A stretch of DNA of 56,642 nt. Source: an uncultured Chitinophagaceae bacterium. GTDB taxonomy: Bacteria > Bacteroidota > Ignavibacteria > UBA10030 > UBA8401. Under the pieces are notes generated by a model. It saw only the letters and a program-made list of their open reading frames with translations. It had not been told where the DNA came from and did not search any database. The position numbers and the translations under genes were made by a program. This document shows positions 3,755 to 30,079 of this stretch, piece by piece (the first letter of the stretch is position 1; each line of letters starts with the position of its first letter). Location: assembly GCA_964384415.1 (NCBI GenBank), contig CAYLMV010000002.1, positions 24,389 through 81,030 of the forward strand, given 5' to 3'.

Positions 3755-3809
3755 GGATTTAGCGCATCGACGAGCCGGTGAAGTTAGCCACTAACAGAGA
3801 AGGACGGCA

Positions 3810-4756: not shown

Positions 4757-5333
4757 GAATTCAGCATTATTGTGTGTCGCTCTGGCGCTGATCTTCGGCG
4801 CATGCGGATTGTTAAAGACTCGGGATCCCGAATCACCGGATACGGGAAACGCCGCAAATCCTCCGGCATTCTCGCCGGAGACTGTCGTCACGAACCTCAC
4901 TTCATCCTTCGAGAACAAGAACGTCAGCGACTACGCTAAGGTATTCGCAGACACATCCTCGGCTGGGAGGCAGTACGTATTCATCCCAACCCAAAAAGCG
5001 ACCGCTACCTATGCCGGATTCTTCTCCCACTGGGGGGTTGATGCTGAAACGAATTATTTTCGAAAGGCGGTATCGAGCGTCAGTGCGGCATTCGCGCCGG
5101 CCGTCAGTTTTACTCAGCCGGTTTCCACCCAGTATCACTCGGATTCTTCGCTCTATGAGGCCAACTACACAGTGTTTCTTGCTCCGAACACCTATGTGGG
5201 TCACGCACGCCTGTATATGATTCCGAATAAAAACACCGGCATTTGGTCGATTTATCGCTGGGAGGATTTTCCGTCTACTCAGAATCCCGACACGTCCAGC
5301 TGGAGTGATCTGAAGGGGCAATTCAGTCAATGA
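4746..5333 (+). CDS. Hypothetical lipoprotein (possible NTF2/SnoaL-like fold)
   Basis: Start revised from the ORF track to TTG 4746, with GGAAGG 5 nt upstream. This gives the signal [20 protein letters not shown] (lipobox). Confidence 0.7.
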
Positions 5334-5842: not shown

Positions 5843-5862
5843 CTGGGTAATGTAGGATGAAG

Positions 5863-5947
5863 CGCCAAGGCGCGAAGAACGCGAAGCAGAATTTTTTAAG
5901 AGCGACTGGATTTCTGTTTTTGTCTTGGCGCCCTTCGCACCTATGCG
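5863..5947. repeat. Imperfect inverted repeat built of 8-9-nt CGCnAAG units
   Basis: Left arm cgccaaggcgcgaagaacgcgaag (5863-5886) matches the reverse complement of 5924-5947 at 18/24 with no gaps; inner cagaa...ttctg also pairs. Confidence 0.7.
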
Positions 5948-5994
5948 GTCTTGTTATTCGATTACTCGACTGAAGAAGTACACAACAATATCTC

Positions 5995-6828: not shown

Positions 6829-6893
6829 AGTGACGGGCGAGTCACCTCATGAACGATGCATAGTCCGATCATCCAAGTGATCTCAAAGCTGCA

Positions 6894-7778
6894 ATGAATA
6901 TCTTCTACATACTCAAAGAAGGCATATCGGGCTTCAAGCGGGCTCGGCTGTCGATGGTCATCTCCATTTTCACCATTACGATATCGTTGATCCTGCTTGG
7001 ACTCTTCACGATTGTTTTCCGTAACACAAACCAGATTGTCGAATCGTTCCGTGACCGCGTCGAAATGGAAGCCTTCCTTGAAGAACCAGTCACTGAAGAG
7101 ACATCTCCGATCGTCGAGAAGAAGATCCTCGCGATTCCGGGCATCAAGCAGGTAAAGTATATCTCCAAGGATCAGGCGGCAAAAATCTTCAAAGAACAGT
7201 ATGGAGAGGATATCCATAGCATCCTCGATTTCAATCCCCTTCCCCCATCATTCAAAATCTACCTGGAACAAGAGTACAAAAATTCCGACAGCGCCAAGGT
7301 GGTCTACGCACAGTTGAAGCAGATCGGGGGAATCGACGAAATCATCTATCGAAAGACATTGCTCGAGTTGTTGGATCGCCGGGCGCAGTTGTTCGCTATG
7401 GGGAGCCTCGGCGCCGGAATTGCGCTTCTTATCACTGCAATTTTTCTAGTTTCCAACACGATACGGCTGGCAATTTACGCCAAGCGGAAAATCATCATGA
7501 CCATGAAACTGGTGGGCGCCACGCGAATGTTCATTCGCCTTCCATTCTTAGTGGAAGGGGTCATTCAAGGAGTCCTGGGAGGCCTTTTCTCTTCGGGCTT
7601 CATTTATCTGGCAGTCGACTACGCATCTAAACTATTCGGGGGCGATCTGGCGCCGATCGTTTACGTCGAACCGACATTTTACATTATTGTTCTTGCGGCG
7701 GGCACGCTGCTTGGATTTCTCGGGAGCATCATTTCGGTGAGGAAATTTATCACCGAGAGTGTCGTGCTGACAAATTAA
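6894..7778 (+). CDS. ftsX: Cell division permease-like protein FtsX
   Basis: N-terminal TM, NPLPPSF extracellular motif, SNTIRLAIYAKR.I..MKLVGAT..FIRLPF.VEG; no adjacent ftsE. Confidence 0.92.
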   Translation: MNIFYILKEGISGFKRARLSMVISIFTITISLILLGLFTIVFRNTNQIVESFRDRVEMEAFLEEPVTEETSPIVEKKILAIPGIKQVKYISKDQAAKIFKEQYGEDIHSILDFNPLPPSFKIYLEQEYKNSDSAKVVYAQLKQIGGIDEIIYRKTLLELLDRRAQLFAMGSLGAGIALLITAIFLVSNTIRLAIYAKRKIIMTMKLVGATRMFIRLPFLVEGVIQGVLGGLFSSGFIYLAVDYASKLFGGDLAPIVYVEPTFYIIVLAAGTLLGFLGSIISVRKFITESVVLTN

Positions 7779-14517: not shown

Positions 14518-14643
14518 ACAATTTGTCCTTTCTTGACAAAGCGGTGCTGCTCTCTTTATTTTATCTTCAAAAAGAGGCTCTGCGTGTAGCCGCTTTGGCG
14601 CTCCGGAGACTAACAAACACCTTTCTCCAGCACTCCAAAACTC

Positions 14644-14684
14644 AAACAAAAAAGCCTCTGCCAGCGTACGCCAACAGAGGCTTT
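14644..14684 (-). terminator. Intrinsic terminator inside the 5' leader of the T9SS gene
   Basis: Minus strand AAAGCCTCTG-ttggcgtacgctgg-CAGAGGCTTT followed by TTTGTTTG. Confidence 0.75.
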
Positions 14685-14943: not shown

Positions 14944-16758
14944 TTATTTGTCCCTCGACCGATTCGGTTGAGGAGCTGCCGGGCGCGCAGGTTGCTGCGG
15001 CTGAGGACGAGGCGCCTGTTGTTGGATTTGAGGACGAGGCGCCTGTTGGACCTGCGGCCGCGGTGCCGGTTGAGTCTGTTCCCAGATATTTCTCTGATAC
15101 TCCTGGGCTTTGTGTATCGTATTAAAATTGTACGTGGGCGTCGGCCTCGGAGCGACGACGGGTTCGGGTACCGGTCGGTCGACCTGGGAAGACTGCGGTC
15201 TCACAGGTTGAGGTGAGATGTGAGGCCGCGGTGCGGGTGCCGGCACCGTTGAGCCTGAGTTGGGTTCCGATGCGTCTATAGTTCTTGCCGGCTTCACAGC
15301 TGGGGCTGTCGTCGTTGGCACGGGTTCGGCATCCACGCGGTTCAGGGGTCGCGAAATGATCTGGCCGGGATCGGTACCGAGAACCGGCATTGGCCGCACG
15401 ATTCTTGCCGGCGGCTGTTTTTCCGGTTGGGCTATGGCATCACCCCCATCGTCCTGAGTCGCCAGCGGTCTTGGCCTGGGGTTGTTCACAAGGGCGGGAT
15501 ATTTCGTTTCATTGCCTTTATAGTAATCATCGCGCGCAAGCGGAGTCAACCGCTTTCCGCCGAGTTTGTTCTGCGCATCGATATCCAACGATGCCAATTG
15601 CTTGATGACCTCTGGCCGTCTTGTCCTGTTCGTCGTGAAGTCTTTCGGCAAATAATCCTTCCTCTGGTGCACCCAGTTGTGAACTATCCTGCTGTTTCCT
15701 CCGGGGTTCCTTCCCCGGCCGTAATAGTGGTCCACGTACCTGTCGCAGAGGTGAGGATACCGATGCACATGTTCCGGACGATAGAAATACCAGGTTGTGA
15801 AGTAGCGCGACGGCGAACCGATGATCACGATATGTCCGTGCCTGTCATGGTAAAACCCGCAATCAAACCAAAATGGATAGGGATACCAATAATCGTAAGG
15901 ATACCAGGTTGGGTAACCGAACCAGTATGGATATGGATTACACGTGTAGTTGTCGACATACTCCGGATCCGGCGCAGCGCTGACGTCGTCCTCCGTGTAG
16001 CCGTTTTCCGTAGCATAATCTTCCCCCGCCTTGTTCAAGTCGTCCTGCGCTTCCGGATCGCTTTGGATGGATTCCTTCCATGCCGCCGCATCGATGGCAT
16101 TCTGCCGGATCTCAGCCAAATTGAGCGAGTCGGCTTTGTGGATCACTCCCTGGGGATTGCGTCTGTAACGATCGCCCACGCGGACCGTGAGTCCAAGATG
16201 ATCATTCAGCAGGTTAATGATCTCCGGAAACAGGACCAGCTCTTTTAGCGCTTCCTGGGTCTCAGGTGGATAATCCGCAAGTATCTCGTCAAACGCAGAG
16301 TCCGTCTTCGTCTGAATTGCATCCATCTTGCGAAGCACATCATAATGATTGGTGCCGTATTCCATGCCCGTCTGGCGAATCTCCGCAGGATAGTCTTTCA
16401 GGATTGCGATGATTTTCTCAACGGACTGATCGCCTTCCCTGGCGAGCCGGGAGATCAGCCCCGGATAGCGGCTGAGATTCCAGAAATCTTCCTGTTCGTC
16501 CTTGGTATAACCTCCGATTAGCTCGACAAATTCCTGGCTGGAATTCTTCTGAAGGCTTGCGATGCTCACAATCGATGAAGGGTACTGAGACGCCTCGAAA
16601 ATATCGAGGCGAATCGTATCCGGATACATGATCAGAGCGTTGAAAGCGGCAGAATCTTCTTTCATCAGGTGTTTGTGAGTTGCAGTCTGATCCTGTGCCG
16701 CGGCCGTTGCAGCAGCGACTGTGATGAGTGCGAGGATTACCCCAATTGTGGCTTTCAT
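14944..16758 (-). CDS. Secreted DUF3300-like protein with Tyr/Trp/Pro-rich middle and Pro/Gln-rich tail
   Basis: Start revised to MKATIGVILALITVAAATAAAQ (signal peptide); ALIMYPD...EASQYP resembles the DUF3300 motif; C-terminal APRPQ repeats. Confidence 0.7.
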   Translation of the reverse strand: MKATIGVILALITVAAATAAAQDQTATHKHLMKEDSAAFNALIMYPDTIRLDIFEASQYPSSIVSIASLQKNSSQEFVELIGGYTKDEQEDFWNLSRYPGLISRLAREGDQSVEKIIAILKDYPAEIRQTGMEYGTNHYDVLRKMDAIQTKTDSAFDEILADYPPETQEALKELVLFPEIINLLNDHLGLTVRVGDRYRRNPQGVIHKADSLNLAEIRQNAIDAAAWKESIQSDPEAQDDLNKAGEDYATENGYTEDDVSAAPDPEYVDNYTCNPYPYWFGYPTWYPYDYWYPYPFWFDCGFYHDRHGHIVIIGSPSRYFTTWYFYRPEHVHRYPHLCDRYVDHYYGRGRNPGGNSRIVHNWVHQRKDYLPKDFTTNRTRRPEVIKQLASLDIDAQNKLGGKRLTPLARDDYYKGNETKYPALVNNPRPRPLATQDDGGDAIAQPEKQPPARIVRPMPVLGTDPGQIISRPLNRVDAEPVPTTTAPAVKPARTIDASEPNSGSTVPAPAPRPHISPQPVRPQSSQVDRPVPEPVVAPRPTPTYNFNTIHKAQEYQRNIWEQTQPAPRPQVQQAPRPQIQQQAPRPQPQQPARPAAPQPNRSRDK

Positions 16759-16852
16759 TTTCGCGTTCCTCCAAATAGAGAGATCAAATACGAATACATT
16801 TCCCTTACCTATAGTAACACGCTGAATGGGGAATAGCAAATCGGCGATATGC

Positions 16853-17171: not shown

Positions 17172-19355
17172 CTATTTCTTTGTCATCACGAAAACCCCGT
17201 TCCAGTTCTCCGGCGGAGGCGAGTCGATAAACATCATCGATCGCTGGATGTAAATATTAGACACGATATCATCCCGGCGGATTAAGAGCCCCTGCTGGAA
17301 TTGCTCAACGGCGCTCTTCCATGCGCGTTTCTTGTATGCCTCGAGACCGGCATGGTAATAATCCAGGAACTTCTTCGTGGCGTCGTTCTGCACTTCGTCC
17401 GCCATTGCAATAAGTTCGTAGATGCGAACCGGCTCCGTTTTTCCCACCACGACAACGAGATCCATTTCGCGCGAGAGAACGGCATCCGACACGCGGCGGT
17501 AGGTAAACTCGCTCATCAGAAGGCGTGTGCCGTATTCCTTGTTGACTCCCTCCAGCCTCGAGGCGAGGTTCACCGCATCGCCAACAGCCGTGTAGTTGAA
17601 TTTGGCTTCGGCGCCCATGTTTCCGACTACGGCTTTGCCGCTGTTGAGCCCGATGCGCTGATTGACCACCGGTTTGCCGAACCGGATCCATTTCGCATGA
17701 AGGCCTTCAAGTCTCTTTTGCATTCTGAGGGCGGCGGCGCAGGCGTGAACAGGGTGTTGAGAGTCGTCGAGAGGAGCTCCCCAAAACGCCATGATTGCAT
17801 CGCCGATATATTTATCCAGCGTCCCTCCTTCTTCGATGATGATATTCGTCATTTCAGTGAGATACGTATTCAGGAGGCCGACGGTGTTTTGAGGTCCGAG
17901 CGATTCCGCCATTCGCGTGAAGCCTTCAATATCGGCGAACAAGGTGGTGATTTCGCGCTCTTCGCCTCCAAGTTTCAGGAGGGATGGATTTTCAATGAGC
18001 CGCTCGACGACCGACGCGTCGATATACTTCTGGAACATCCCTTTGATGATTGCCTTTTGCTTTCCCTCGGTGGCAGAAATGTAACTCATGGCTCCTGCGT
18101 AGCTGAAGAAGATGGCAAAGATCGGCTCGGTGAGGCTATACATCGTGCCGGTATTGGCGAAGGCAGCATAGGCGAACATCAGATACAGTACGAGCAACAC
18201 AGCTGCGACAGGAAAACTCCAACGGAGTCTGAGCAGCATTGAGGCCATTGTCACGGCTAACGTCACAAGGATGAGCAGCACAAGCTGCGTTGCAACGGAA
18301 GGCCGGCTGATGTATTGACCAGACACGATCTGGTCGTAGACATTCGCGTGAGCGTAGCAGTTGGGAGACTTTTCCGAAACGGGAGTTGCTCCGATGTCTG
18401 CGATGGAACGCGCGGTCGGCCCGATGATGACGACGGCATCCTTGAAGATGGACAGCGTTTGCGTGTCTCCGCGTGTAAAGGCATCGAGTACATCGTAGAA
18501 TGAAATGTCTTTGTAGATGTTATTTTTGCCCGCATAATCAATTTCGATCTCGCCGCGGGATGTCAGGGGGATTTCGCGTACGCCTGCATGGACAACCATT
18601 CCCTCGTCGGTAAGCGTGACGGTAATCGAATCCAGGTTGATGTTGAGGGCGTGAAACGCGAGTGCCGCTCCGAACGCCGCGTAGTAGTCGCCGGCGTAGT
18701 CGACGAAAAATGGCATCTTGCGGATGATACCGTCCACGGAATCCGGAGAGAGAAGAATATGTCCGACGCCGGAGGCCAGCGAAGCAAGCGAATCGAATGG
18801 TTTTTCATCGATGTATGTCGCACGGGGAAAAGCAAGCCGTACCCCCCTTTCCGGTACTGCGAACGGATGAAGAGCCGCATACGCCTCTTGGTCGACATCT
18901 TCCGGTTTGAGTTCGCCGATATCTTCGCTTGGCACGAAGGGTCCGACAGCATGAAACACATTCTTCGAGAGGCCGGCAAAGCGCAGAAACAAGGCGTTCT
19001 GGAATTGCGAGGCGCTGTCTTGTTTCATCGTGGGGAATGTATAGTCAACGCCGATGGCTTTTGCCCCGCTGGCAGAGATAATGTACAGAAGCGACCCGAA
19101 TTTGTCGCGTGGAACGGGATAGTCGAGCTCCTTCAGCGTGTTCTCGTCGATCTTGACGATAACGACGTTCGAAGTGTGCGGCCGCTCGCCGCGTGCGCGG
19201 ATGAGCGCGTCGTACGACTTACGCTCAAGTGCAGGGAAAAAATTAGAGCCCAGAACGTTTTCCACCCAATTCGTCCGGAAGAGGAGCAGCGAAAAAGCGA
19301 CCGAGCCGGCTGCGATGAGAACTCCCACCAGGATCTTCATCAATTGCTTATTCAT
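17172..19355 (-). CDS. CHASE2-domain class III adenylate cyclase
   Basis: N-terminal TM, CHASE2 (VVIVKIDE, DGIIRK, IIGPTA..IAD..ATP), 3 TMs, cyclase motifs FADIEGFT, DKYIGDAIMAFWGAP, YTAVGDAVNLASRLE. The Lys/Thr pair suggests ATP specificity. Confidence 0.93.
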   Translation of the reverse strand: MNKQLMKILVGVLIAAGSVAFSLLLFRTNWVENVLGSNFFPALERKSYDALIRARGERPHTSNVVIVKIDENTLKELDYPVPRDKFGSLLYIISASGAKAIGVDYTFPTMKQDSASQFQNALFLRFAGLSKNVFHAVGPFVPSEDIGELKPEDVDQEAYAALHPFAVPERGVRLAFPRATYIDEKPFDSLASLASGVGHILLSPDSVDGIIRKMPFFVDYAGDYYAAFGAALAFHALNINLDSITVTLTDEGMVVHAGVREIPLTSRGEIEIDYAGKNNIYKDISFYDVLDAFTRGDTQTLSIFKDAVVIIGPTARSIADIGATPVSEKSPNCYAHANVYDQIVSGQYISRPSVATQLVLLILVTLAVTMASMLLRLRWSFPVAAVLLVLYLMFAYAAFANTGTMYSLTEPIFAIFFSYAGAMSYISATEGKQKAIIKGMFQKYIDASVVERLIENPSLLKLGGEEREITTLFADIEGFTRMAESLGPQNTVGLLNTYLTEMTNIIIEEGGTLDKYIGDAIMAFWGAPLDDSQHPVHACAAALRMQKRLEGLHAKWIRFGKPVVNQRIGLNSGKAVVGNMGAEAKFNYTAVGDAVNLASRLEGVNKEYGTRLLMSEFTYRRVSDAVLSREMDLVVVVGKTEPVRIYELIAMADEVQNDATKKFLDYYHAGLEAYKKRAWKSAVEQFQQGLLIRRDDIVSNIYIQRSMMFIDSPPPENWNGVFVMTKK

Positions 19356-19373
19356 AGGGAGAGGCCTTTTTTC

Positions 19374-19533
19374 AATTAAAAGTTAAAAGTGCAAAAGGTA
19401 AAGGTAGAGTGAAGAGTTCAAAGTGGCCACTCAATTCTGTAATCGTGCAGACGCTCTCCATAACGCGGCAGGCGTGCTTCCCACTTTGAACTTTGGACTT
19501 TAACTTTGCCTTTTGCATTTTGAATTTTGAATT
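19374..19533. repeat. 53-bp heptamer-periodic inverted repeat around a 54-nt core
   Basis: Arm 19374-19426 matches the reverse complement of 19481-19533 at 43/53 with no gaps. Confidence 0.9.
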
Positions 19534-19537
19534 CCCG

Positions 19538-22045
19538 TCACGCCTTCCAGTATAAGAAATCCTTCAGGTCCGAAAGTTGCGTCGGATCGATCCCCCGGCG
19601 CCCTCCGAAGACGAACCTGTTCTCGCCCCGCCGGATTCTCGCCGTGTTCGGGCGGGAATTCTTCTTCGCGGCGATATCCTGGAGTGCCGCAAAAAGAAGA
19701 CTCTGCAATTCGGTCCGGTCGATCGTGGCCCCCTTTTCCGCCGCGCGAGTCTTCGTCATTTCGGAGACGATATGGTCGATGCCGAGTTCGGCGTAGGCAT
19801 CTTCCTGAGACGGGAATTTGGAGACGGCCGTCGCAAAGGAATTCACCGTTGCCTGATGATCGCCGCCGAGGTATTGCAGCAGCCCCATATTCAGGTCGAT
19901 ACCGCCGTCTTTGTTGTCGGCGTCGAGAGCCGCCGCATACGATTTGTAGGCGTTCGCCGAATCGCCCTGCAGCAGATAGATGTTGCCGAGGTTGTTCTTG
20001 GTCGATGCGCCCGACAGGCTCTTCAGAGTTGAAATTGCTTCGCTGTAGCGGCCGCTGTTTGCGAGATACATCGCGGCAAGGTTGAGCGATTTCTCATCCC
20101 CAAGTTGTTTGAGGCTTGCAACTTTTTGATCGAGCATCTCGCCGTTTATTCTGGCAACGTTTTTCAAGTCAGCGTTCATCAGCGCACTCACTTTTTCGGC
20201 CGGCGGCGCCTCGGAGGGTTTGGCGTTTACTCCAAGATTCGCCGGAGGAAACTGCTCCCATGCCTCGCGGACGTCGATGATATCGAGTCTACCCTGCGCA
20301 TCGGAGATTCTGTAGTAACCGTCCGCAGCCAGCCTCCACGCTTCGACAAACGGATGGTTGATGATCGTGGTCTCGAGGGGAATCCACACCGTATTGTTCC
20401 TCACGACATAGTCCTTCGGGTTCAGGCTGATTCTTGAGGCATTCTTCTTGTTGACACCCGTGTCAAAGATAATGAAGACATGGTCGGATGTTCCGACAAG
20501 GGCCGTGCGGATACCGATATTTTCCAGACAGGCCGCCAATAGCACGGAACTGCCGCTGCAGTTTGCGGTATGATTCGCGAGTGTCTCGCGGGGATACTGA
20601 ATGTCGTCAAGCAAATCCGCATCGGCGACCCGCCACGGCGCACTGACGTAGTTGATCGAAAATGCGCGGATGGCTTCCCACACGGCCATCGCGTTCAGAA
20701 CATTTTTCGGCGCTCCTTCAACGAGCGTCTGATCGTATTTTACAGAGCCGAGAACATAGCGCGAAAAATTCTTAACCGCCTCGTCGTTCGAAGTGATGAA
20801 CGCGCCGACGGAATTGGGGCGCGACCAGGTGATCGACGTTCGGCTGTACACCGTCACCGGCTTCACCAGGCTCCTGGACTTCTGCTCCCCGCCAAGCGTG
20901 TACGTCAATTCCGCCTTGATCTGAGCGACCGTATTCTCATTGATCGCGAGCATCTGCTTCGCATCAAGCGTCACTGAAACAGGGAACGTCTCCTTGGAAG
21001 AGGCTTTTAGGAGAGGGATCACCTGTTCCGAAGGAAGCTGCATATAATTCGGCACGAAGAAGCTTGCCTTCACGTTGTTGATATCGGTCTTGCCGGTGTT
21101 TTCGATGGTGATCTGTCCGATTGGATGGTAGGCGTAATAATTGTAGGCAGACGGGAAAATGTTCTCAACTTTGAATTCCGAGATCTCCAGAGCGTTTGGC
21201 ACCGCATAACTCACTTTCGCTTTCGTTCCCGTCACCTTCGTATTGACGTCGATGCGGTTTCCGGTGAACGATTCGACTTTGTACTCCGGCATCGAAGAGA
21301 ATTGCTTCCGTAGATCGTCGATCGATCCACGAATCCATGCATCCATGACGGCCGCATCGCCTTCCATGTACCGGAGTTTCATTTTCTGGATCATCGGGAT
21401 CTTGCCGGGGAGGTCCTGTTCGATCTTCATCAGCGACGCGTCGTTCACTCCAAGAAGCGCGAGCTGAATGGCGACTGGCTTCTCTTTCGCCTCCTTCAGG
21501 TTTTTCGCGACCTTTGCCACCAGGTCGTCTGCCAGGATTCCACCCAGTTCATCGAGAGCCTTGGACGCGGCCTGCGATTTGCCCTGGGACGCCTTTTTTG
21601 CGGTGGCGCTTGCGACAGCGAGAATGTCCCCGGTATCTGTGATGATCACCTTCACTTCGCCATCGGCGGTATACTCGACCGTTTTTATTCCGTAGGTCTC
21701 TCTCTCTTCACCGAACACAGCTTGCGCGCCGCCGGCGATAATCAATTCGGCTCCGAAGCGTCTTCCGAGCTCCTTTGCTTTCGTCGGATTGAGATCGCCG
21801 AGGGAGAGATCCCGGGCTCGCACCGATTCGAACTGCGATTTGTCGACAAGCCGGTAGCCTTTTGCGAGAAAGGCGCTTTCAATTTTTCCTGTAACCTTCT
21901 GCGCCGTGGCGTCTTTGTCGTCTATCTTCTCATCGACGACGACCATGATGCGCGGCATGTCGGAGTCTTGTGCCGCCACGCGGCTCGTGGAGGCAAATGT
22001 TGCCATGATAGATAAAATGAGTAGAAGGGTCATCACTCGTTTCAT
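19538..22045 (-). CDS. Exported protein: FlgT/CsgG-like N-domain, Ig-like domain, transglutaminase-like domain, TPRs
   Basis: Signal peptide; KIESAFLAKGYRLVD...AKELGRRFGAELII; ANCSGSSVLLAACLENIG...DHVF; C-terminal NNLGNIY/LNMGLL TPR pattern. Confidence 0.72.
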   Translation of the reverse strand: MKRVMTLLLILSIMATFASTSRVAAQDSDMPRIMVVVDEKIDDKDATAQKVTGKIESAFLAKGYRLVDKSQFESVRARDLSLGDLNPTKAKELGRRFGAELIIAGGAQAVFGEERETYGIKTVEYTADGEVKVIITDTGDILAVASATAKKASQGKSQAASKALDELGGILADDLVAKVAKNLKEAKEKPVAIQLALLGVNDASLMKIEQDLPGKIPMIQKMKLRYMEGDAAVMDAWIRGSIDDLRKQFSSMPEYKVESFTGNRIDVNTKVTGTKAKVSYAVPNALEISEFKVENIFPSAYNYYAYHPIGQITIENTGKTDINNVKASFFVPNYMQLPSEQVIPLLKASSKETFPVSVTLDAKQMLAINENTVAQIKAELTYTLGGEQKSRSLVKPVTVYSRTSITWSRPNSVGAFITSNDEAVKNFSRYVLGSVKYDQTLVEGAPKNVLNAMAVWEAIRAFSINYVSAPWRVADADLLDDIQYPRETLANHTANCSGSSVLLAACLENIGIRTALVGTSDHVFIIFDTGVNKKNASRISLNPKDYVVRNNTVWIPLETTIINHPFVEAWRLAADGYYRISDAQGRLDIIDVREAWEQFPPANLGVNAKPSEAPPAEKVSALMNADLKNVARINGEMLDQKVASLKQLGDEKSLNLAAMYLANSGRYSEAISTLKSLSGASTKNNLGNIYLLQGDSANAYKSYAAALDADNKDGGIDLNMGLLQYLGGDHQATVNSFATAVSKFPSQEDAYAELGIDHIVSEMTKTRAAEKGATIDRTELQSLLFAALQDIAAKKNSRPNTARIRRGENRFVFGGRRGIDPTQLSDLKDFLYWKA

Positions 22046-22112
22046 AGGTGGATCTCCTTAAAACGTGAGCGTTGCATTTCAATGATACTCTTTGAGTGCT
22101 TCGGGGCATTCC

Positions 22113-22895
22113 CTATTTCGTTTCTTTCTTCATTTTGGTGATCAGAACCGCCAGCTCTTCCACCTTCTGCTTCGCCGGTTCATAGCCGTTGGATTCATCC
22201 CAGGCTTTCTGATACATGGATTTCGCGCTTTCGAACGCCGCAATCGCATCGGCATGCTTGCCTTGCTTCTCCAGTTTACGGCCGTTGTCTTCGGTGTCGA
22301 GTGCCTGGGCGTACGTCACATACCCGTTGAATTTTCCATCCTTCGAAGCTTCAAGTTCGTTTTCTTCTCCCTTGCTCAGTTTCACCTCGAGGTCGTCCGA
22401 AATCTTCTTGACGAGAGATTTGAGCATCGTCAGAAACTGATCGAGGTCTCCCGTCTCCTCTTCCGCATTCAGAGTAACGCCCGTTTCCGTCGCCACGATT
22501 CTCGCGTCGATGCGGAGCTTGTCGCCAAAAAGGTTTGAGAAGCCGCCGAACAACAGCACCTTCGCTCCGAGCAGCTTTCCCATCTTTTGTGATGTCCCTT
22601 TGTCGACGAGATCCGTTTCGCCCAGGTTCAGCTCTTCGACGACCGATTGAATCCGCTGCCGTTCCACAACTTTCAGCCCTTTGATCTTGGACATCTCGGT
22701 AATCAGCATGTCCGCCAGCCCCTTTTTCAAAGGGTCGAGTTTATCCTTATCCACAACGCTGTTATTTTCAAAATAGAGAATCGCAATCGTCTGCTGGGGT
22801 GCTTCCTGCGCAGGAAGTTCCGCCGCACACATGCTCATTAGCAAAACAACCAACACTGCCCATCGAACAAGGCGACTTTTATCACTCTGATTCAT
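22113..22895 (-). CDS. CsgG/HfaB-like exported protein with C-terminal helical/TPR region
   Basis: TIAILYFEN...LDPLKKGLADMLITEMSK...VVERQRI...GKLLGAK; signal peptide. Confidence 0.78.
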   Translation of the reverse strand: MNQSDKSRLVRWAVLVVLLMSMCAAELPAQEAPQQTIAILYFENNSVVDKDKLDPLKKGLADMLITEMSKIKGLKVVERQRIQSVVEELNLGETDLVDKGTSQKMGKLLGAKVLLFGGFSNLFGDKLRIDARIVATETGVTLNAEEETGDLDQFLTMLKSLVKKISDDLEVKLSKGEENELEASKDGKFNGYVTYAQALDTEDNGRKLEKQGKHADAIAAFESAKSMYQKAWDESNGYEPAKQKVEELAVLITKMKKETK

Positions 22896-22941
22896 AAATG
22901 TATCCTTCCAGATGATGAGATAATGAGAACCTACATTCTGC

Positions 22942-24108
22942 TCAAAACTGCACGCGCCCGCTTCCGCCGAATTCGATGCCGGTGACGTTGTTCTTTATGT
23001 TCTCGATCACAACGCTTCCGATGCCGTACTTGGCGTCGAACGCGAGTCCGAACCAGGAGGCAAGCGTGAACCCGACTTCCCCCCCGATCAACGCGAGCTG
23101 CGCTTTGCCGGTTTCATAGATACCGACTCCGAATGGAATCTGATCTCCGGTATGGTATTTCCCCTGCAAGATCCCCGAAAGAGCGCACCACTGCACCGGA
23201 AACCAGGATGCGGTGTACTGAATTTCATAGTGCTGCGAACTTTTGTAACTTTCGGCGGCCCCCGAATTGTACAGCTTGCTCTGAGTGCGCAGGCGCGTCC
23301 TGAATTGAATCAGGTGCGTTATCGGACCCCACTTGAGCGAATAGACGGCAAGGGTCATAAACCGCAGCCCGGACTGAATGAAATTTTGACCGTTGAGCTT
23401 GTCGGGAAGATAGTTCGTAGCCGTGAGGTCGAGCGAGATTCTCTCTGTCTTCGAAAAAGTCATGTAGTCCAGTCCGGCGTTCACCGAAATCTCATCTCCG
23501 GGATCGTACTTGTCGCTGAACCCAGTTATCGAGGCGGGCTGGTATTCGCCTTTATAGACGTACGAAGTTCCGAAGCCGAAAATGAGACGCCGCTGGGCCG
23601 CGTAGGCGTACGCGAGGCCGAGATTCGCGTTCGTTCCCTGGCCGAAAACGGGAACGCGATAGTCGAAGGCGGATTCCGAGAGAATCGTCGCGACAGAAAG
23701 CTCGTTTTGAGTCAGTTTCGTAATTCCGGTCGGGAGGCTCGCCCCCCCGTTGATCCAGACCCGGTCGCCGGGAACGACATACGAGAAGCCGAGTCTCGTG
23801 TCTGTGATGCCCTGAAGTTTCAGCGAGTCGAGCGTTGAGAGCGCCGGAGCGTTCGCGACCGTAATGAGAATCCTGTTGGAGAGCGGTACCGAAAGCGACA
23901 CCGGCGCCGATTGTTCGAGTACGGTCCCTTCGTTCTTCAATTTCCACTCCTGCTGCCATCCTCCCATCGTAAAGCCGGTCAAACCGCGGAACAGAAGCCG
24001 CTCGTCATATTTCGGCCCTTGCAGCTGTGCGCACAACCGTTCGTTCAGAAATCCGAACAATGCCGTTGCCAGCATCCAGCAGAAAATATGTCGTGCGTAT
24101 TTATTCAC
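22942..24108 (-). CDS. Putative outer-membrane beta-barrel protein
   Basis: Signal peptide, alternating aromatic/Gly beta-strand pattern, C-terminal Phe (GRVQF). Confidence 0.65.
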   Translation of the reverse strand: MNKYARHIFCWMLATALFGFLNERLCAQLQGPKYDERLLFRGLTGFTMGGWQQEWKLKNEGTVLEQSAPVSLSVPLSNRILITVANAPALSTLDSLKLQGITDTRLGFSYVVPGDRVWINGGASLPTGITKLTQNELSVATILSESAFDYRVPVFGQGTNANLGLAYAYAAQRRLIFGFGTSYVYKGEYQPASITGFSDKYDPGDEISVNAGLDYMTFSKTERISLDLTATNYLPDKLNGQNFIQSGLRFMTLAVYSLKWGPITHLIQFRTRLRTQSKLYNSGAAESYKSSQHYEIQYTASWFPVQWCALSGILQGKYHTGDQIPFGVGIYETGKAQLALIGGEVGFTLASWFGLAFDAKYGIGSVVIENIKNNVTGIEFGGSGRVQF

Positions 24109-24131
24109 CAGGGTTCAATTCCGGAGTTGGA

Positions 24132-27100
24132 TCATTTGAGGAAAACAAGTTTTCTCACCGCGCTGAATTCCTCTGTCCGCATTCTGCAAAAATATATCCC
24201 GCTCGCATTCTTTTCCCCTTTGTCGTTGCTTCCATCCCACACTGCCGAATAACTCCCGATCTTCCGATCTCCTTCGACGAGTGTTTTGACCTTCTGACCG
24301 AGAAGGCTAAAGATACTGATCTCCACATGAGCGCTGTGACCCAGCGTGTATTGAATCGTTGTCGAGGGATTGAATGGGTTTGGAAAATTCTGTTCCAGCG
24401 AGTAAGCGACAGGAATGACCGGAATCCCGTTTGTATTCTTCGAGACATAGTCGCTCGTCCCCACGACCAGCCGGAATACCCGGTCGGTCTCATTCTTGTT
24501 GAACTTGAAATTGTAGGAGAGAGCGGAACCGATATCCGCTACCCGTTCGGTGGACATATCGACCAGCATCATCTCAAAGCCAGACGGAATATTTCCGGCC
24601 CGTTCGAACTGAACAGCCACAGCGGCTTCTGACTTTGCCGACGCGATGTCGAAGTCCCAGTAATTTCCATCCTCATGAACCGACCGAAAATCTCCGGCGT
24701 ACCTTCCAGGGTTGGTCTTCCAATCCCCGTGGTTAAAGGACAGCATCAGGTATCCCGTCGGAGCCGGGGGAGGTTCTGAAAAATCGTTAACGTCCCAAGC
24801 ATCGCTCGCAGAGCGCAATACGCCCGCCACATTGCTGTTGTCGCTCGCGGTCCCGTCTGTAGCCCGAATGTCAACCTGCCATTCGCCCTGGGCAAATGTG
24901 CGTTCGGTTGAACTCAATTTCGGCAGCGCTCCTGGGGACGAGATGTCGGCTGGATTGATATAGACGGTGACGCCGTTCCGGAGGCTCTTGAGGAAGTAGC
25001 CCGTGAAAGGTTCCATGACGTTCGACTCTTGCTGAAATCCATTTCCGTCGAAACGCCAGAGCCACGACTCGACGGAATCGGGCGTCGGACGTCGTGAGTT
25101 CGCCCAGCTCACCTCGTACGGGAAAGGATTTCCGATTAAGTTGTATCCAGAGTCGAGCTGGATGGGGAAGAAATCCTGCGCCGTTGAAGCAGCCGCTGAG
25201 CCGAGCGTGAGCGTTTGCGATCCTTTTGTGATGAGCCAGTATCCTTCTCCCCGCTTGAACGAGAGAAATCCGGGACTTGGAAACTCCAGGTATTCAGCGC
25301 CATCCCAGCGCCCGTAGAGCCTCCATTTGGTGATATCGACGCTCCCCAGATCTTTGAGTACATCCAGAATACTGGCGTCGGCGAGGTCGTACGGGATGCT
25401 GATGATCTGATACTGATTGCTCGGAGTTGGCTTCGGAACTTTGACCGTATAATTCGATGTGTAGCCAAAAACATTGAGCGCAAACTGAAGATTCTTTCCG
25501 GCCAGAATTCCCATCAATGGATTCAGCGCCGGGTCACTGCTGTTAATATCCGACCAGAGATCCAGGTCCCCGATCAGCAAAATCCTTCCCTTCCCAATCT
25601 GGCTCATCGCGGCTACGACAGGCTGGAGAATTTTGTGCTGGGTGGAGTCGCTCGTGAGCCCGAATGAGACGGGACTGCCTTTCAGAAATGGTACGGCATT
25701 AGCGGAGACATTAATGCTCGATCCGCCAAAAAACACAAGCGTGTCAATTCCTTTCAGGAAGGGATGTGTGGGATCGACAAATGCCGAGAAGGCCGGTGAA
25801 GCCGGAGAGCCGAGATCATTATGGGAGTAATCGTACACCACATCGCCGTTCAAGGCAAGCCCTGTAGAGTCGTAGGGTGGATCCACAACCCACTGGTAGT
25901 TAGCGAGCAATTTATTGATGATATCGTTTCCGGGCGACTTTCCCGAATCGCCGAGCATGACGACAAATCCGCCGTTGAGGACATATTGTTGAAGACGGTT
26001 TTCTTCGAAGGGCGTATATCCCGTTGCAGGCGCTGCGATAACGATTGCGTCGTACGGAGCGGCGAGGGGATCGAACGGCGTGACGCCCTGCAGAACAACC
26101 ATCCCACTTCCCTGGAGCGCCTTGATGAATTGAGAGAAATATTGTGAGATGGAACCTGCGGGGATGTTTGAAGAAAGTCCATGGGTTGTTTCAAGCAATA
26201 TTGTCCGCGCCACTGCGGCTTTCGCGACGCTCGTTCCCTGAACTTTCACGACTAAGGTCGGCGCCGTCGGATCGGTCGAAGTGAAGGTGAGGGCAGCTTG
26301 AAGCGCACCCGAAGTTTTCGGCATAAACTGGATCGTAAATGATCCGGTACTGCCGGGGTCGACAGAGAGCGGTGCTGCCCCGCCGATGACGGAAAAATCC
26401 GGTGAACCGGTGAAGCCTGTATACGAAATCGTAACAGCCTGCAGCCCCGCATTCCTGAATGTAACCGTTTGGGTGGATGATGCGCCGACGTTCATGGTGC
26501 CAAAATCTAAACTGCTCTGCAGCAAGGTGACGGAGGTGCCAAAATCCACTTTTGTCACTCCGCGATTGCTTCCAATAAACAACACTCCCTGGGCGTACCC
26601 GCCCGTTCCAATTGAAAAGTATGAGGTACTGGAGTCGCCGCCGAGTTTATTCCACGTGACCCCGGCGTCCGAGCTTCTCTGTATTCCTGACGGCCCATCG
26701 CAAATAAGCATGGAAGAATTGCTCGTGTCTATGACGATGTCGAATGCTGGTATTCCCAGGGAATTCCAGTTGGCGCCTCCGTCTGTCGTTCTGAACACTG
26801 AGAAAGGATTTGAACCGGCGATCGTTGGCAGGTACATGACATTTGCGTTCTTCGGATCGACACGCGGATGAATTCCAAGAAGCGGGTAAAGGGTCCCGCC
26901 AACCGTCACGTTCGGCGGCAGATTCCCGCCCTTCGCCGTCCATGTTTTTCCCAAGTCGGTCGACTTCCAAACGCCATTGGCCGAAAAATAAACGGTTGTC
27001 GGACTGATAGGATCAAACTCGATATTCTCGATCAGGTTTGACTGCAGGACTTTCTGTGGTGCCGTCAGCGCATTCCATGTCACGCCGGCATCCGTGCTGC

Positions 27101-28544
27101 TCATGAAATCCCCCGTGAGCGCACAGACCAGAAGATTACGAGAATCAACGGGCGACACTCTGATCGTGCCGTCCTCGGAGTTATTGTTGAACGGCGAGAG
27201 AGAATCGTGCGGGATGTTCTGTATCGATAGCTTTTGCCACGTCTTTGCGGTGTCGGCACTCTTGTAAAGTCCGTAGACACTCCCGGCGTAGAGAGCATTG
27301 CTGTTCTTGGGGTCCGCAACGATTGCCCGGATGTACGGATTTTCCAGACCAGAGTTTGCCGGAATCCATGTCGTTCCGCCGTTGGTGGATTTAAATATGC
27401 CGCCGCCGTAAACTCCGGCAAAGAGATTGCCGGGGTTCGAATTCATCACTGCAATTGTACGGACAAAAGCATTGTTGAATCCGATGTTCTGTCGCGACCA
27501 CGACGCCCCGCCATCATAGCTGATATAGATTCCGTCGGAGGTTGCCAGATAGATTTTTTTGGGATTCGAAGCCGGAACGAAAATTGAATTCACATCGACT
27601 GCCGCTTTGAACAGCGATTCCCAAGACACGCCGGAATCCGTCGAGCGATAGAGTCCGCCGCGAATTGGCTGCGGCGAAGACGTCCACTCGTTTCCGTTGG
27701 TTCCGAGATAGATTGTGTCGGTCGAAGCACTGCCGAACGCAAGCGAGGATTGCACCACCGGATCATCGAGGAACGCTCCGGCGATCGGTGTCCATGGAAT
27801 GCCCCCCGGACAAAAATACTCGCCGGCAGCAGTCCCGGCAAACAGCCCCACTCCGGTGATGAACAAGAGTGAATGAACACGAAGCGAGTTGCCCGACAGC
27901 CCGTTGTTATTGACGAACGAGGTCCAATTGTTTCCCCCGTCACTTGTCCTGTAGACCCCGGCATTATCCGTACCGGCATAGGCGATAACCGCGCCCGCCT
28001 GGCTGGCCGGGTCGATTACGATTGCGGTAACTACAGCGGTCGTCGGCAGTCCGCCGGAAACCGAAATCCATGTGCGTCCGGCATCGATGCTCTTTGTTAC
28101 GCCGTTGCCTCCCTGCGCCTGCGAACGCACGTCGGAAGCATAGACGACGGAATCAAGCGAAGGATGGATTGCAATGGCGGCGGTGGGATTCGAGAGGCTC
28201 GTCAACGACCAGTTCGATCCCCCGTTGATGCTCACAAACAATCCCTGGTTCGTGGCGGCATAGACAAGGCTCTGGTTCTTCGGATCGAACACCATGCCGT
28301 TCACTTGAACCGAGCCGGTGAGCGTGTGCGACCAGCTCGAGCCGCCGTCGGATGAGGCATAGACGCCGTCGGAACGAGTACCAACGAGGACAACCGCGTC
28401 GTTCGCATTGCCGCGGATGACGTCGGCAATTCCCCCGTCAGGCCCGATGGCAGAAACTCCCGTCCCCTGCGCGAAGAGGGGTTGGAACGATGAGAGTGCA
28501 ATGAAGAAAAACAGAACGAAGTTATTTCGTAACAAAAGTTTCAT
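24132..28544 (-). CDS. Large T9SS type A sorted protein: BNR/sortilin-like propellers, ASH/choice-of-anchor D Ig domain, GldG/IFT52 (GIFT)-like domain, FlgD-like CTD
   Basis: S-DGG-SW repeats; LDFGTMNVGASSTQTVTFRNAG; YDAIVIAAP...LQQYVLNGGFVVMLGD...RILLIGD; QNFPNPFNPST...WDGSNDKG. Confidence 0.85.
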   Translation of the reverse strand: MKLLLRNNFVLFFFIALSSFQPLFAQGTGVSAIGPDGGIADVIRGNANDAVVLVGTRSDGVYASSDGGSSWSHTLTGSVQVNGMVFDPKNQSLVYAATNQGLFVSINGGSNWSLTSLSNPTAAIAIHPSLDSVVYASDVRSQAQGGNGVTKSIDAGRTWISVSGGLPTTAVVTAIVIDPASQAGAVIAYAGTDNAGVYRTSDGGNNWTSFVNNNGLSGNSLRVHSLLFITGVGLFAGTAAGEYFCPGGIPWTPIAGAFLDDPVVQSSLAFGSASTDTIYLGTNGNEWTSSPQPIRGGLYRSTDSGVSWESLFKAAVDVNSIFVPASNPKKIYLATSDGIYISYDGGASWSRQNIGFNNAFVRTIAVMNSNPGNLFAGVYGGGIFKSTNGGTTWIPANSGLENPYIRAIVADPKNSNALYAGSVYGLYKSADTAKTWQKLSIQNIPHDSLSPFNNNSEDGTIRVSPVDSRNLLVCALTGDFMSSTDAGVTWNALTAPQKVLQSNLIENIEFDPISPTTVYFSANGVWKSTDLGKTWTAKGGNLPPNVTVGGTLYPLLGIHPRVDPKNANVMYLPTIAGSNPFSVFRTTDGGANWNSLGIPAFDIVIDTSNSSMLICDGPSGIQRSSDAGVTWNKLGGDSSTSYFSIGTGGYAQGVLFIGSNRGVTKVDFGTSVTLLQSSLDFGTMNVGASSTQTVTFRNAGLQAVTISYTGFTGSPDFSVIGGAAPLSVDPGSTGSFTIQFMPKTSGALQAALTFTSTDPTAPTLVVKVQGTSVAKAAVARTILLETTHGLSSNIPAGSISQYFSQFIKALQGSGMVVLQGVTPFDPLAAPYDAIVIAAPATGYTPFEENRLQQYVLNGGFVVMLGDSGKSPGNDIINKLLANYQWVVDPPYDSTGLALNGDVVYDYSHNDLGSPASPAFSAFVDPTHPFLKGIDTLVFFGGSSINVSANAVPFLKGSPVSFGLTSDSTQHKILQPVVAAMSQIGKGRILLIGDLDLWSDINSSDPALNPLMGILAGKNLQFALNVFGYTSNYTVKVPKPTPSNQYQIISIPYDLADASILDVLKDLGSVDITKWRLYGRWDGAEYLEFPSPGFLSFKRGEGYWLITKGSQTLTLGSAAASTAQDFFPIQLDSGYNLIGNPFPYEVSWANSRRPTPDSVESWLWRFDGNGFQQESNVMEPFTGYFLKSLRNGVTVYINPADISSPGALPKLSSTERTFAQGEWQVDIRATDGTASDNSNVAGVLRSASDAWDVNDFSEPPPAPTGYLMLSFNHGDWKTNPGRYAGDFRSVHEDGNYWDFDIASAKSEAAVAVQFERAGNIPSGFEMMLVDMSTERVADIGSALSYNFKFNKNETDRVFRLVVGTSDYVSKNTNGIPVIPVAYSLEQNFPNPFNPSTTIQYTLGHSAHVEISIFSLLGQKVKTLVEGDRKIGSYSAVWDGSNDKGEKNASGIYFCRMRTEEFSAVRKLVFLK

Positions 28545-28556
28545 TCAATCCTGATT

Positions 28557-29900
28557 CTATTTCGGGGGCGTCGGAGGACCCGGCAGAGGCGAAGCAACCG
28601 ACGTCGGCTGAGGGGAAGAACTAGGGCCGGGCACGAACCCGGAATTGACGTTGGCCGTGGTTGTGGTGACCCTCTCCGAAACCGCGGTCATGCTTTCTCT
28701 CGCCGCCGTGCTGCTAGGCGGAGGCGGCACGGGTGCCGGCGTTTGAACCCCGGTTCCGCCCGAGGGTGAACTGCTTTGTATCATTTGCTGTGTTTTTTGG
28801 GCGGTGGCAAGGCTTGACTTGGCCTGAGAAAATTTCGGGTCTGACTGAACTGCGCCCGAATAGGACTGCACGGCCTGAACATACATTCCTTTGTCTTCGT
28901 AGTCCATTCCCTGGGAGTATTGCAGGAAAGCGAAGAAATTCTCCGTCGGAATTTCAAGAATGGCTTCTCTCTCCTTATCCGTTATTCGAATCTTCAGTTC
29001 ATCCAGTATTTTGAAAACGAGCTCTTTCTCAAGACGAAAGAACTCCGTCATGTTTCCGCTGATGTCGGTGACACCGTCGAGACTGCCCGTCCTCGTCTGG
29101 GCGACCAGTGCATCGATTCTCATTTTCTCGCTGGTGAGATCGAAGAATGTTCCCTTCACCAGCCGGTACGCTCCGAGAAGTTTGCCAAGACGGGGAGCTG
29201 ACCGCTCATCCACGAGGTTTGATTCGCTGAAATTCAATTCTTCCATCAGTTTCTGGAGACGAAGCCTTTCGACGACCCTGACCGATTGTACTTTTGATAG
29301 ATCGGTGATCATCATATCGGCGATCCCCTTCTGCAGCGGATCCAGATTCCGCATGCTTCCCTTATTCTCAAAGTACAAGACCGCGATAGTATTGGTGGGG
29401 ATGGATGCGACATCGAGCTGCGACTCTTCCACCAGCGCCATCTTTGCTTCGATATCCATCTGCTGGCGGTAGAGGATCTTGATGCGGGCTTCCACAATAT
29501 CCCGGTACTCTCCGAAGACCGTGAGTTCCTGATATTTTCTGTAATACTGAATGGCTTTGGGATAGTCGACGACTCCCTCATAACACGAAGCCAGATAATA
29601 GACCGCCTGGTCGTCTTCGGGATCCACCGAGACGGACCGATCCAGCCATGGCTCGGCCTCAGCATAATACTTCTTGTTATAGAGGCCGATGCCAAGATAT
29701 TTCAGAAACAGCGGATCGTCGGGGTTACGGGCGAGGTTGGATCGGGACATGGCAATCGCTTCGTCGTTCTTCCCCTGTTCCAGCAATCCGGAGGTAATCT
29801 CATATGACGTGGGGGCACAGGCGGAGAACAGGAGGAGGAACGGGAATAAGAAGAGCGCGGAAGGTCTTGTGCGCGTGAAGCAGGGTTGCATGGTGATCAT
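28557..29900 (-). CDS. TPR + CsgG-like lipoprotein
   Basis: Lipobox LFSA-C; N-terminal TPRs; TIAVLYFEN...LDPLQKGIADMMITDLSK...VVERLRL...GKLLGAY; Pro/Ser-rich tail. Confidence 0.8.
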   Translation of the reverse strand: MITMQPCFTRTRPSALFLFPFLLLFSACAPTSYEITSGLLEQGKNDEAIAMSRSNLARNPDDPLFLKYLGIGLYNKKYYAEAEPWLDRSVSVDPEDDQAVYYLASCYEGVVDYPKAIQYYRKYQELTVFGEYRDIVEARIKILYRQQMDIEAKMALVEESQLDVASIPTNTIAVLYFENKGSMRNLDPLQKGIADMMITDLSKVQSVRVVERLRLQKLMEELNFSESNLVDERSAPRLGKLLGAYRLVKGTFFDLTSEKMRIDALVAQTRTGSLDGVTDISGNMTEFFRLEKELVFKILDELKIRITDKEREAILEIPTENFFAFLQYSQGMDYEDKGMYVQAVQSYSGAVQSDPKFSQAKSSLATAQKTQQMIQSSSPSGGTGVQTPAPVPPPPSSTAARESMTAVSERVTTTTANVNSGFVPGPSSSPQPTSVASPLPGPPTPPK

Positions 29901-30079
29901 TGTAGGAGGTTGGCACTTCCCTTAAAAAGCATGAACCAAACGTAGTGTGACCCTTCTCTTCGCGAGCTAATATTGCAAAAAAAGGGTCGGTTGTCAAGGA
30001 AGGGCATGAACCGAACGCATCGACAATGTCCACTATTTGAGCTGAAATCGCCCTATTCCCGGATTGCTAGATTGACTTC

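Follow-up and report, generated by a model that had tools for sequence, protein, structure and literature searches.

Organization of the gene cluster

In a 56,642-nt stretch of DNA labelled as an uncultured Chitinophagaceae bacterium (contig CAYLMV010000002.1, positions 24,389 to 81,030; hereafter the window), six open reading frames (ORFs), designated g1 to g6, are located on the minus strand between positions 17172 and 29900 (Table 1). An earlier note, made from the letters alone, had described them as an operon of six co-directional genes with short spacers and a hairpin-filled gap in front of a cyclase gene, and had suggested that the products span the cell envelope. The ORF listing reproduced this arrangement at exactly the same coordinates. 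The spacers g1/g2, g2/g3, g3/g4, g4/g5 and g5/g6 measure 12, 23, 46, 67 and 182 nt, respectively.

The predicted compartments are supported by sequence features and structural models. By these, g2 would be exposed on the surface, g3 located in the outer membrane, g1 attached to it as a lipoprotein, g4 and g5 periplasmic, and g6 integral to the inner membrane, which fits the coverage of all four compartments originally suggested. No named system for this combination of genes was found in Pfam, NCBIfam, PADLOC, Rfam or literature searches, in agreement with the earlier note, which had not recognised one.

Table 1 Features of the g1-g6 cluster. Nucleotide positions refer to the window, residues to the respective protein; T9SS, type IX secretion system; TPR, tetratricopeptide repeat; Ig, immunoglobulin-like
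Feature	Position (nt)	Residues (aa)	Strand	Remarks
g1	28557-29900		-	447 aa; predicted outer membrane lipoprotein, TPR and CsgG-superfamily domain
g2	24132-28544		-	1470 aa; T9SS cargo
g2 pre-CTD module	24390-25442	1035-1385	-	lineage-conserved
g2 type A sorting domain	24144-24386	1387-1467	-	TIGR04183, 32.7 bits, cutoff 23
g3	22942-24108		-	388 aa; outer membrane beta-barrel, ~16 strands
g4	22113-22895		-	260 aa; exported, CsgG-superfamily periplasmic domain, helical C-terminal region
g5	19538-22045		-	835 aa; exported, FlgT/CsgG-like, Ig, Cys-His-Glu and TPR
g5 two FlgT/CsgG-like alpha/beta domains	21236-21952	32-270	-	AlphaFold and Foldseek
g5 Ig sandwich		286-400	-	AlphaFold
g5 Cys-His-Glu transglutaminase-like domain	20246-20833	405-600	-	C496, H522, E558
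g5 TPR		616-770	-	Pfam and model; disordered linker next
g5 conserved C-terminal tail	19541-19633	805-835	-	ENRFVFGGRRGIDPTQL..FLYWK; short, ordered in model
g5-g6 hairpin	19374-19533		-	long imperfect stem, then U-rich stretch
g6	17172-19355		-	727 aa; inner-membrane CHASE2 and class III cyclase
g6 CHASE2	18252-19244	38-368	-	PF05226, 144.9 bits
g6 class IIIb-type adenylate cyclase domain	17454-17957	467-634	-	PF00211, 69.4 bits; helical tail after
Candidate promoter 5' of g1	29969-29997		-	TTGACA-17-AATATT, extended TG; best sigma-70-like match

Conservation of the cluster

One genome per species was scanned, and the 73 loci obtained were analysed together with 10-kb flanks by tblastn and jackhmmer. 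All homologues of g5 that were detected come from metagenome-assembled genomes, most of which bear the label Bacteroidota or Ignavibacteria; no cultured organism was found among the matches. Three types of loci could be distinguished. In type A (g5 identity 41-96%), the order is g1-g2-g3-g4-g5-g6 with g1 as the conserved head of the cluster, and all six genes are present in this order in 19 of the 22 type A genomes with enough flanking sequence (g5 identity 41-88%). In type B, found in Ignavibacteriaceae-like genomes (43-48%), the cyclase gene is located divergently upstream of the operon and g3 is missing. Two small CsgG-like genes, one for a lipoprotein and one for a product with a C-terminal transmembrane helix, are followed by the gene for a giant T9SS protein of 1158 to 5329 aa, and g5 comes last. 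This upstream part is visible in seven or eight loci, in which the giant gene is short enough, and only the last ~430 aa of the giant proteins are common with g2. Type C is represented by Kryptonia (37-38%), where only g5-g6 are left, between genes for aconitase, ferritin and biotin ligase.

Across all loci, g5 is the most constant member of the cluster. The g6 gene follows it directly in type A and in Kryptonia, and because the latter keep just these two genes, g5-g6 can be regarded as the core pair. The g3 gene is confined to type A, where it is kept together with g6, and is absent from the other two types. The recurrence of the gene set in dozens of species-level genomes goes far beyond what chance would produce, and since the flanks vary between genomes while the set persists, the genes appear to be functionally linked. 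Co-occurrence elsewhere, on which the earlier note had made its proposal depend, was therefore found, with the order kept in most type A genomes and the set present in another arrangement in a second lineage.

Several assemblies carry doubtful taxonomic labels. Nearly identical clusters are present in L006, L008, L009, L025, L058 and P0037, which are labelled Chitinophagaceae, Synechococcus sp., Acidobacteriota or Bacteriovoracaceae. Mistakes in binning or naming probably account for these labels, as the cluster otherwise follows Ignavibacteria-like genomes. In the type A locus L012 (positions 187-7370), three different proteins of 542, 538 and 1303 aa with a C-terminal sorting domain (CTD) replace g2, and no cyclase gene follows g5.

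The g5 core and its CHASE2 neighbours

In a comparison of a 318-aa core of g5 with 1.84 billion representative proteins, 2,214 relatives were detected at a threshold of E <=1e-3, and 836 at one of E <=1e-30. The core (Ig, Cys-His-Glu, TPR) defines a family of ~2,200 sequence clusters, and its position varies widely within these proteins. A search of a 5.8-billion-protein index with a profile of the core alignment yielded nine fragmentary matches without taxonomic breadth. Distant relatives, from other lineages, keep residues 283-740 of g5 and have a different N-terminus, which is a PorV-like barrel in many of them (PDB 6h3i_F, E 9e-8) and an OmpA-like barrel, NHL propellers with TPR or another CsgG-like domain in others. 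Fusion to PorV-like and OmpA-like barrels locates the core at the outer membrane, on the periplasmic side.

A further metagenome scan gave 80 loci. In the loci of these scans, which were pattern-based and do not constitute an unbiased census, a CHASE2 gene adjoins the core gene in 46 of the 63 informative loci with a FlgT-like N-terminus, in 10 of 21 with a PorV-like barrel, and in 9 of 39 with other N-termini. For the core family, CHASE2 neighbours are present at about 40% of loci. The adjoining CHASE2 proteins carry a class III cyclase, a sigma-54 AAA+ activator (L075), SpoIIE/PP2C (L083), TIR (L105) or CHAT (L082, L091, L092, L109). The periplasmic CHASE2 domain is the sole part common to proteins with these five kinds of output. 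The strongest functional link, independent of the output, is the one between the g5 core and CHASE2, which is narrower yet more general than what was first proposed. As CHASE2 is extracytoplasmic and the outputs are cytoplasmic, information should flow inward, with the g5 core upstream of CHASE2. Where CHASE2 is missing, the core is found beside large exported LVIVD, RCC1, Big_5, fn3 or macroglobulin-like proteins, and CTD-bearing BNR proteins precede the PorV-like fusions.

Little is established about how CHASE2, a common extracytoplasmic sensor domain, receives its signals; in the literature consulted, the one case studied depends on an outer membrane protein. Full-text literature searches revealed no paper connecting CHASE2 to a transglutaminase-like or TPR partner. 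The presence of an outer membrane-linked partner family beside CHASE2 of any output offers a concrete, testable hypothesis for how this domain is fed. It is possible, if rather unlikely, that the g5 core is a general and previously unrecognised periplasmic partner of CHASE2, an enzyme or adaptor tethered to the outer membrane which would turn an event at a large surface protein into CHASE2 activation. This would amount to a widespread trans-envelope route with outputs including cyclic AMP (cAMP), transcription via sigma-54, PP2C phosphatases and effectors of the CHAT and TIR types.

Clusters of another kind were observed in Synergistaceae (L076, L077, L078; ~9.5-17.7 kb). They encode two proteins with the N-terminal domain of g5, one with Pfam FlgT_N, alternating with two full-length CsgG-TPR proteins (profile positions 8-199 of 210). 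Neither a g5 core nor a CHASE2 gene is present, and the clusters may specify a different envelope structure made from the same modules.

Domain composition of the predicted proteins

For g5, only the TPR was found by Pfam, and the other domains listed in Table 1 were delineated in an AlphaFold model (pLDDT 80.6). The N-terminus matched FlgT in Foldseek searches (8z5n, E 3.4e-5; 3w1e, E 1.1e-4) at low TM-scores (0.24), and it also resembles GNA1162, Cj1090c, LptE and CsgG at similar Foldseek scores. FlgT of the Vibrio H-ring, a periplasmic protein assembling under the outer membrane, is the best structural match of the two N-terminal domains. Unlike FlgT, g5 has no flagellar context, gave no match to the Pfam FlgT models, and contains Ig, Cys-His-Glu and TPR modules in addition. 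Profile comparison aligned the g4 family to residues 61-145 of g5 (hhalign 72%, E 3.5e-5). Because of this link, the presence of three CsgG/FlgT-like domains, as initially described, is upheld by Pfam for g1 and g4 and by Foldseek and hhalign for g5.

The residues C496, H522 and E558 are invariant in alignments of the g5 core down to 24-30% identity. Their order and spacing are those of the Cys, His and acidic residues in transglutaminase-like cysteine peptidases (PF01841), and the motif G-D-C-D-D..L..LLE..GI resembles the helix with the catalytic Cys. However, the scores for PF01841 stay below the threshold (15.4 bits, E 0.023 in the core from the window; 22.9 bits against a cutoff of 23 in the homologue from L072), and the third residue is Glu instead of Asp. 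The top match of the g5-core family profile in the PDB is a transglutaminase-like protein, again weak (E 1.3), and factor XIII was matched by Foldseek at rank 50 (E 4.6e-3). Of the transglutaminase-like TPR protein recognized at first, the TPR and an invariant Cys-His-Glu arrangement could be verified, while these sub-threshold scores only weakly suggest that the domain is a transglutaminase.

In most members of the core family (window nt 19541-19633; L075-L158), a low-complexity linker is followed by a similar C-terminal tail. It consists of a basic/Ala stretch such as RA(S/A)(D/E), about ten further residues and the pattern hydrophobic-(Y/F)-W near the C-terminus, as in GGRRGIDPTQL..FLYWK, SGARASD...VMYWKG and RASD..VEWDYE. 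The tail could mediate docking, mimic a substrate or serve as a tag for sorting. Residues 305-596 of g5 were also matched by the first ~300 positions of the NCBIfam model for the anti-phage protein ProA (1903 positions) with E 2.3e-18, far below the cutoff, so that the Ig/Cys-His-Glu module may occur in a defence protein as well. Literature searches on this NCBIfam "ProA" protein gave nothing usable.

In g6, hydrophobic segments are located at residues 8-26, 357-375 and 381-399. All six canonical cyclase residues are present, D475, K515, D519, T589, N596 and R600, as read from the motifs FADIEGFT, KYIGDA and YTAVGDAVNLASRLE. We take D475 and D519 to be metal-binding, K515 and T589 to be substrate-specifying, and N596 and R600 to be transition-state residues, according to what is known of class III cyclases. 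With the Pfam scores in Table 1, these residues bear out the inner-membrane CHASE2 class III cyclase of the earlier note. The cyclase domain also matches the PycC models of PADLOC (up to E 7.7e-28), but these are generic cyclase matches only. Among the other five proteins, no Pycsar effector or other PADLOC component was detected, and a Pycsar system was rejected for want of an effector beside the cyclase.

The g2 protein begins with a signal peptide, a hydrophobic leader, followed by BNR/Sortilin propellers (residues 30-660; Sortilin-Vps10/BNR match, E 6.7e-32), an Ig domain of the ASH/choice-of-anchor-D type (671-770), a GldG/GIFT-like region (801-999), the pre-CTD module and the sorting domain. 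Leader and sorting domain are as expected for type A cargo of the T9SS. The original description as a propeller/GIFT protein sorted by this system is correct for the propeller and for the sorting domain, the latter above its cutoff, while the GIFT-like region remains sub-threshold (ABC_transp_aux, 32.2 bits against a cutoff of 34.7). For the pre-CTD module, nothing was found in Pfam or the PDB. The last ~430 aa of g2 are the part conserved in the giant proteins preceding g5 in Ignavibacteriaceae-type loci.

The sequence of g3 gave no Pfam, NCBIfam or PDB match. Its AlphaFold model (pLDDT 85.5) is a beta-barrel, and a signal peptide and a C-terminal Phe are present. Foldseek returned FadL as the best match (2e-9), followed by OmpG, CymA and the PelB barrel, so that the putative outer membrane barrel of the first description is supported by a confident model. 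Compared with the PorV-like barrels fused to distant g5 cores, no similarity was detected (hhalign probability 1.5%). That g3 might be a split-off counterpart of these fused barrels is suggested by the fold class only.

In g1, TPR (residues 38-126) and a CsgG-superfamily domain (168-300) are followed by a helical region and a Pro/Ser-rich tail, and the lipobox reads FSAC. The corresponding domain of g4 comprises residues 29-170; a Pfam match to LpoB was weak. The leader of g4 has no lipobox (MSMC, with Met at -1), indicating that the protein is exported but probably no lipoprotein. The sequence motif noticed before in both proteins (TIA.LYFEN...) is real. The two proteins are paralogous, sharing 39% of their residues over 197 aa (E 5e-45).

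Both proteins pass the Pfam threshold for CsgG (PF03783; 35.6 bits for g1 and 51.5 bits for g4, cutoff 20.8), CsgG is their sole sequence match in the PDB (E 0.003 for the g4 family profile), and g1 has a lipobox and would be a lipoprotein like CsgG. In contrast to the curli channel, the matches cover only positions 4-98 of the 210-position profile, g4 has no lipobox, and csgA, csgB, csgE and csgF were absent from the cluster and its near neighbours in Pfam and NCBIfam scans. The CsgG-like domains measure ~140 aa and, aligned to CsgG (4uv2, 4uv3), leave no room for the transmembrane hairpins TM1 or TM2. Because the domains are short and lack the two membrane hairpins of the curli channel, a pore of the CsgG type is unlikely; it was rejected, the second half of the profile being unmatched as well. 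A secretion apparatus working through such a pore, which would be one form of what the earlier note had considered, is likewise unlikely. Judged by their sequences, the domains of g1 and g4 are periplasmic modules of the LpoB/GNA1162/FlgT type, not pores. Pfam "CsgG" matches of such a short type should not be read as secretion channels.

The hairpin between g5 and g6

The gap between g5 and g6 contains an inverted repeat with arms of 53 nt each (19374-19426 and 19481-19533) that are 81% complementary; no other inverted repeat in the window has arms of 24 nt or more. Its folding energy is -49.6 kcal/mol (z = -2.8), a value reached by none of 200 shuffled sequences. The hairpin was detected by folding and repeat search. 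It was missed by a scan for consensus terminators, which counts up to 20 stem pairs, because its arms far exceed this number. In many type A relatives, the same gap harbors a perfect GC-rich hairpin, GCAAGTTACCCTCC...GGAGGGTAACTTG, followed by TTTT. A hairpin followed by a T-run is the classic shape of an intrinsic terminator.

From these sequence features, the hairpin probably acts as a terminator or attenuator that separates the cyclase gene from the structural genes. Expression of g6 probably depends on read-through or on a separate promoter, and is probably weaker than that of g1-g5. Consequently, the six-gene operon described at first stands as a closely spaced, co-directional cluster, while a single transcript of all six genes is doubtful in view of the conserved terminator-like hairpin.

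The version GCAAGTTACCCTCC(loop)GGAGGGTAACTTG-TTTT is nearly identical in L005, L013, L014, L016, L022, L028 and L050. Such conservation is striking for an intergenic terminator, as g5 of these genomes is only ~60% identical to that of the window.

Proposed function and comparison with known systems

The domain content of the proteins, their predicted compartments, the conserved association of the genes and the link between g5 core and CHASE2 irrespective of the output form the starting point for a functional model. Physical contacts, catalysis by g5, and the direction and nature of the signal are what we infer beyond these observations. With slightly less than even confidence, the locus is interpreted as a surface-to-cytoplasm signalling module with cAMP as output.

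In this model, g2 would be exported via the T9SS and displayed on the surface, where its propeller, Ig and GIFT-like domains might bind something or be attacked or shed. The g3 barrel would reside within the outer membrane, and a scaffold beneath it would be formed by lipid-anchored g1, soluble g4 and the FlgT-like N-terminus of g5. Thus, g5 would be tied to the outer membrane here by its FlgT-like domains together with g1, g3 and g4, and in distant relatives by the barrel fusion. The g5 core could serve as the coupling element, which would bind or process either the conserved C-terminal tail of g5 or a part of the surface assembly located in the periplasm. It would thereby present an activating signal to the periplasmic CHASE2 domain of g6, which would then produce cAMP. 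If so, the gene set, which occurs class-wide in Ignavibacteria-like bacteria of soil and rhizosphere, may link cAMP to a surface protein secreted via the type IX system.

In TonB-dependent signalling at the cell surface (FecA-FecR-FecI type), information on an event outside is passed from an outer membrane protein to a protein of the inner membrane that controls an output in the cytoplasm. The logic proposed for the g1-g6 locus is the same, but there is no TonB-dependent transducer, FecR or ECF sigma factor; the receiver is CHASE2 and the coupler belongs to another family. A closer layout is found in Sinorhizobium meliloti, in which perception of an external protein signal by the CHASE2 cyclases CyaK and CyaD1/D2 requires the outer membrane barrel NsrA (PMC13001267, PMC7529298). 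The NsrA/CyaK/CyaD1/D2/Clr system shares with the model proposed here a barrel outside, a CHASE2 cyclase inside and cAMP as output. This likeness is one of layout: no T9SS cargo, CsgG-like proteins or Ig/Cys-His-Glu/TPR partner are described for it, and the organisms are unrelated. In general terms, an outer membrane element feeding an inner-membrane sensor is known, but not with these parts, nor is the partnership of a g5 core with CHASE2.

Several observations weigh against the signalling model. No CHASE2 gene is in view at about 60% of the distant g5-core loci, and for this reason the primary role of the core may be the handling of the large exported proteins beside it, and not signalling. 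Among type A loci, L012 lacks the cyclase gene, and L014 and L044 lack g2. The terminator-like hairpin parts g5 from g6, and none of the RNA runs contains the locus. The assignment of g5 as a transglutaminase stays below family thresholds, and neither a cAMP receptor nor a target gene was identified.

Alternative explanations

The main alternative is a dedicated machine for biogenesis or anchoring of g2, or of the giant T9SS protein elsewhere. The products of g3, g1, g4 and g5 would chaperone, process or covalently anchor the cargo, with g5 as a cargo-specific peptidase or transpeptidase, and the CHASE2 cyclase would merely regulate or report. In Ignavibacteria-type loci, g5 is always located directly 3' of the gene for a CTD-bearing protein, the last ~430 aa of which are shared with g2. 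Distant cores are fused to a PorV-like barrel, and in the type IX system PorV serves as the shuttle that binds CTDs. Furthermore, large exported propeller or Ig proteins accompany the core even where CHASE2 is missing, the invariant Cys-His-Glu residues suggest catalysis, and the hairpin sets the cyclase gene apart. The comparison with the PorV shuttle and its type A cargo is favoured by the sorting domain of g2 and by the related, FadL-like fold of g3; it is limited by the lack of sequence similarity between g3 and PorV and by the barrel-enzyme-TPR fusion, which falls outside the described type IX machinery. In Kryptonia, however, g5-g6 are retained with no cargo gene nearby, L014 and L044 keep the rest of the cluster in the absence of g2, and recurrent adjacency to CHASE2 with five unrelated outputs is difficult to reconcile with the regulation of one cargo. 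The biogenesis explanation is considered unlikely, yet deserving of serious attention, and both it and the signalling model may be true.

A defence module sensing phages or a breach of the envelope is much less probable. A surface decoy or receptor and periplasmic sensors would trigger a nucleotide second messenger here, and CHAT or TIR elsewhere. CHAT and TIR are typical effectors of conflict systems, and both are carried by CHASE2 partners of distant cores. The PycC matches of the cyclase domain and the resemblance of the g5 core to the N-terminus of ProA, far below the cutoff, point in the same direction. These arguments are countered by the absence of a Pycsar effector or another PADLOC component from the cluster, by housekeeping genes in the flanks, by conservation that looks vertical across the whole class and not patchy, and by K515 and T589, which fit a cyclase specific for ATP.

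It is more improbable still that the proteins form a ring-shaped periplasmic structure akin to the flagellar H-ring or basal disk (FlgT/FlgP/FlgO-like), for motility or stabilisation of the outer membrane. FlgT, from the LPHT ring (8z5n) and as 3w1e, tops the structural matches of the g5 N-terminus, and Synergistaceae homologues of the N-terminal domain carry FlgT_N among full-length CsgG-TPR proteins. A flagellar ring was nevertheless rejected: flagellar genes were found neither in the window nor in any related locus, a Pfam FlgT match is missing in g5, and the fold is common to many non-flagellar lipoproteins including GNA1162, LptE and Cj1090c.

Finally, a set of unrelated neighbours without common function, for which the separation of g6 by the hairpin and the few relatives lacking one member might be quoted, is hardly credible and was rejected, being contradicted by the synteny data: order and content are kept from 96% to 41% g5 identity, the set survives rearrangement, and the flanks differ while the cluster stays together.

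Neighbouring genes and further observations

The candidate promoter of g1 is located in a divergent intergenic region, in which such matches are no commoner than in shuffled sequence. Rfam searches of the whole cluster gave no match at E values up to 1. The neighbours of the cluster are ordinary chromosomal genes for alanyl-tRNA synthetase, succinate dehydrogenase/fumarate reductase subunits, an epimerase, rhodanese and transketolase. T9SS machinery genes were not seen within the window, the sole part of the genome examined. The DNA runs containing the locus are rhizosphere and peat metagenomes.

Located 3' of the cyclase gene on the minus strand (12103-14649 and 14944-16839) are genes for a 631-aa exported protein with a weak DUF3300 match and for another T9SS cargo, which contains BNR/Ycf48-like repeats and has a strong sorting domain. 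The gene for the 631-aa protein also trails the cyclase gene in the closest relatives, L006 and L033, but not in more distant ones. At 52789-54636, again on the minus strand, a protein of the BatD family is encoded (E 4.5e-48), and the minus-strand ORFs around this gene, at ~50-56 kb, may form a Bat-type aerotolerance operon.

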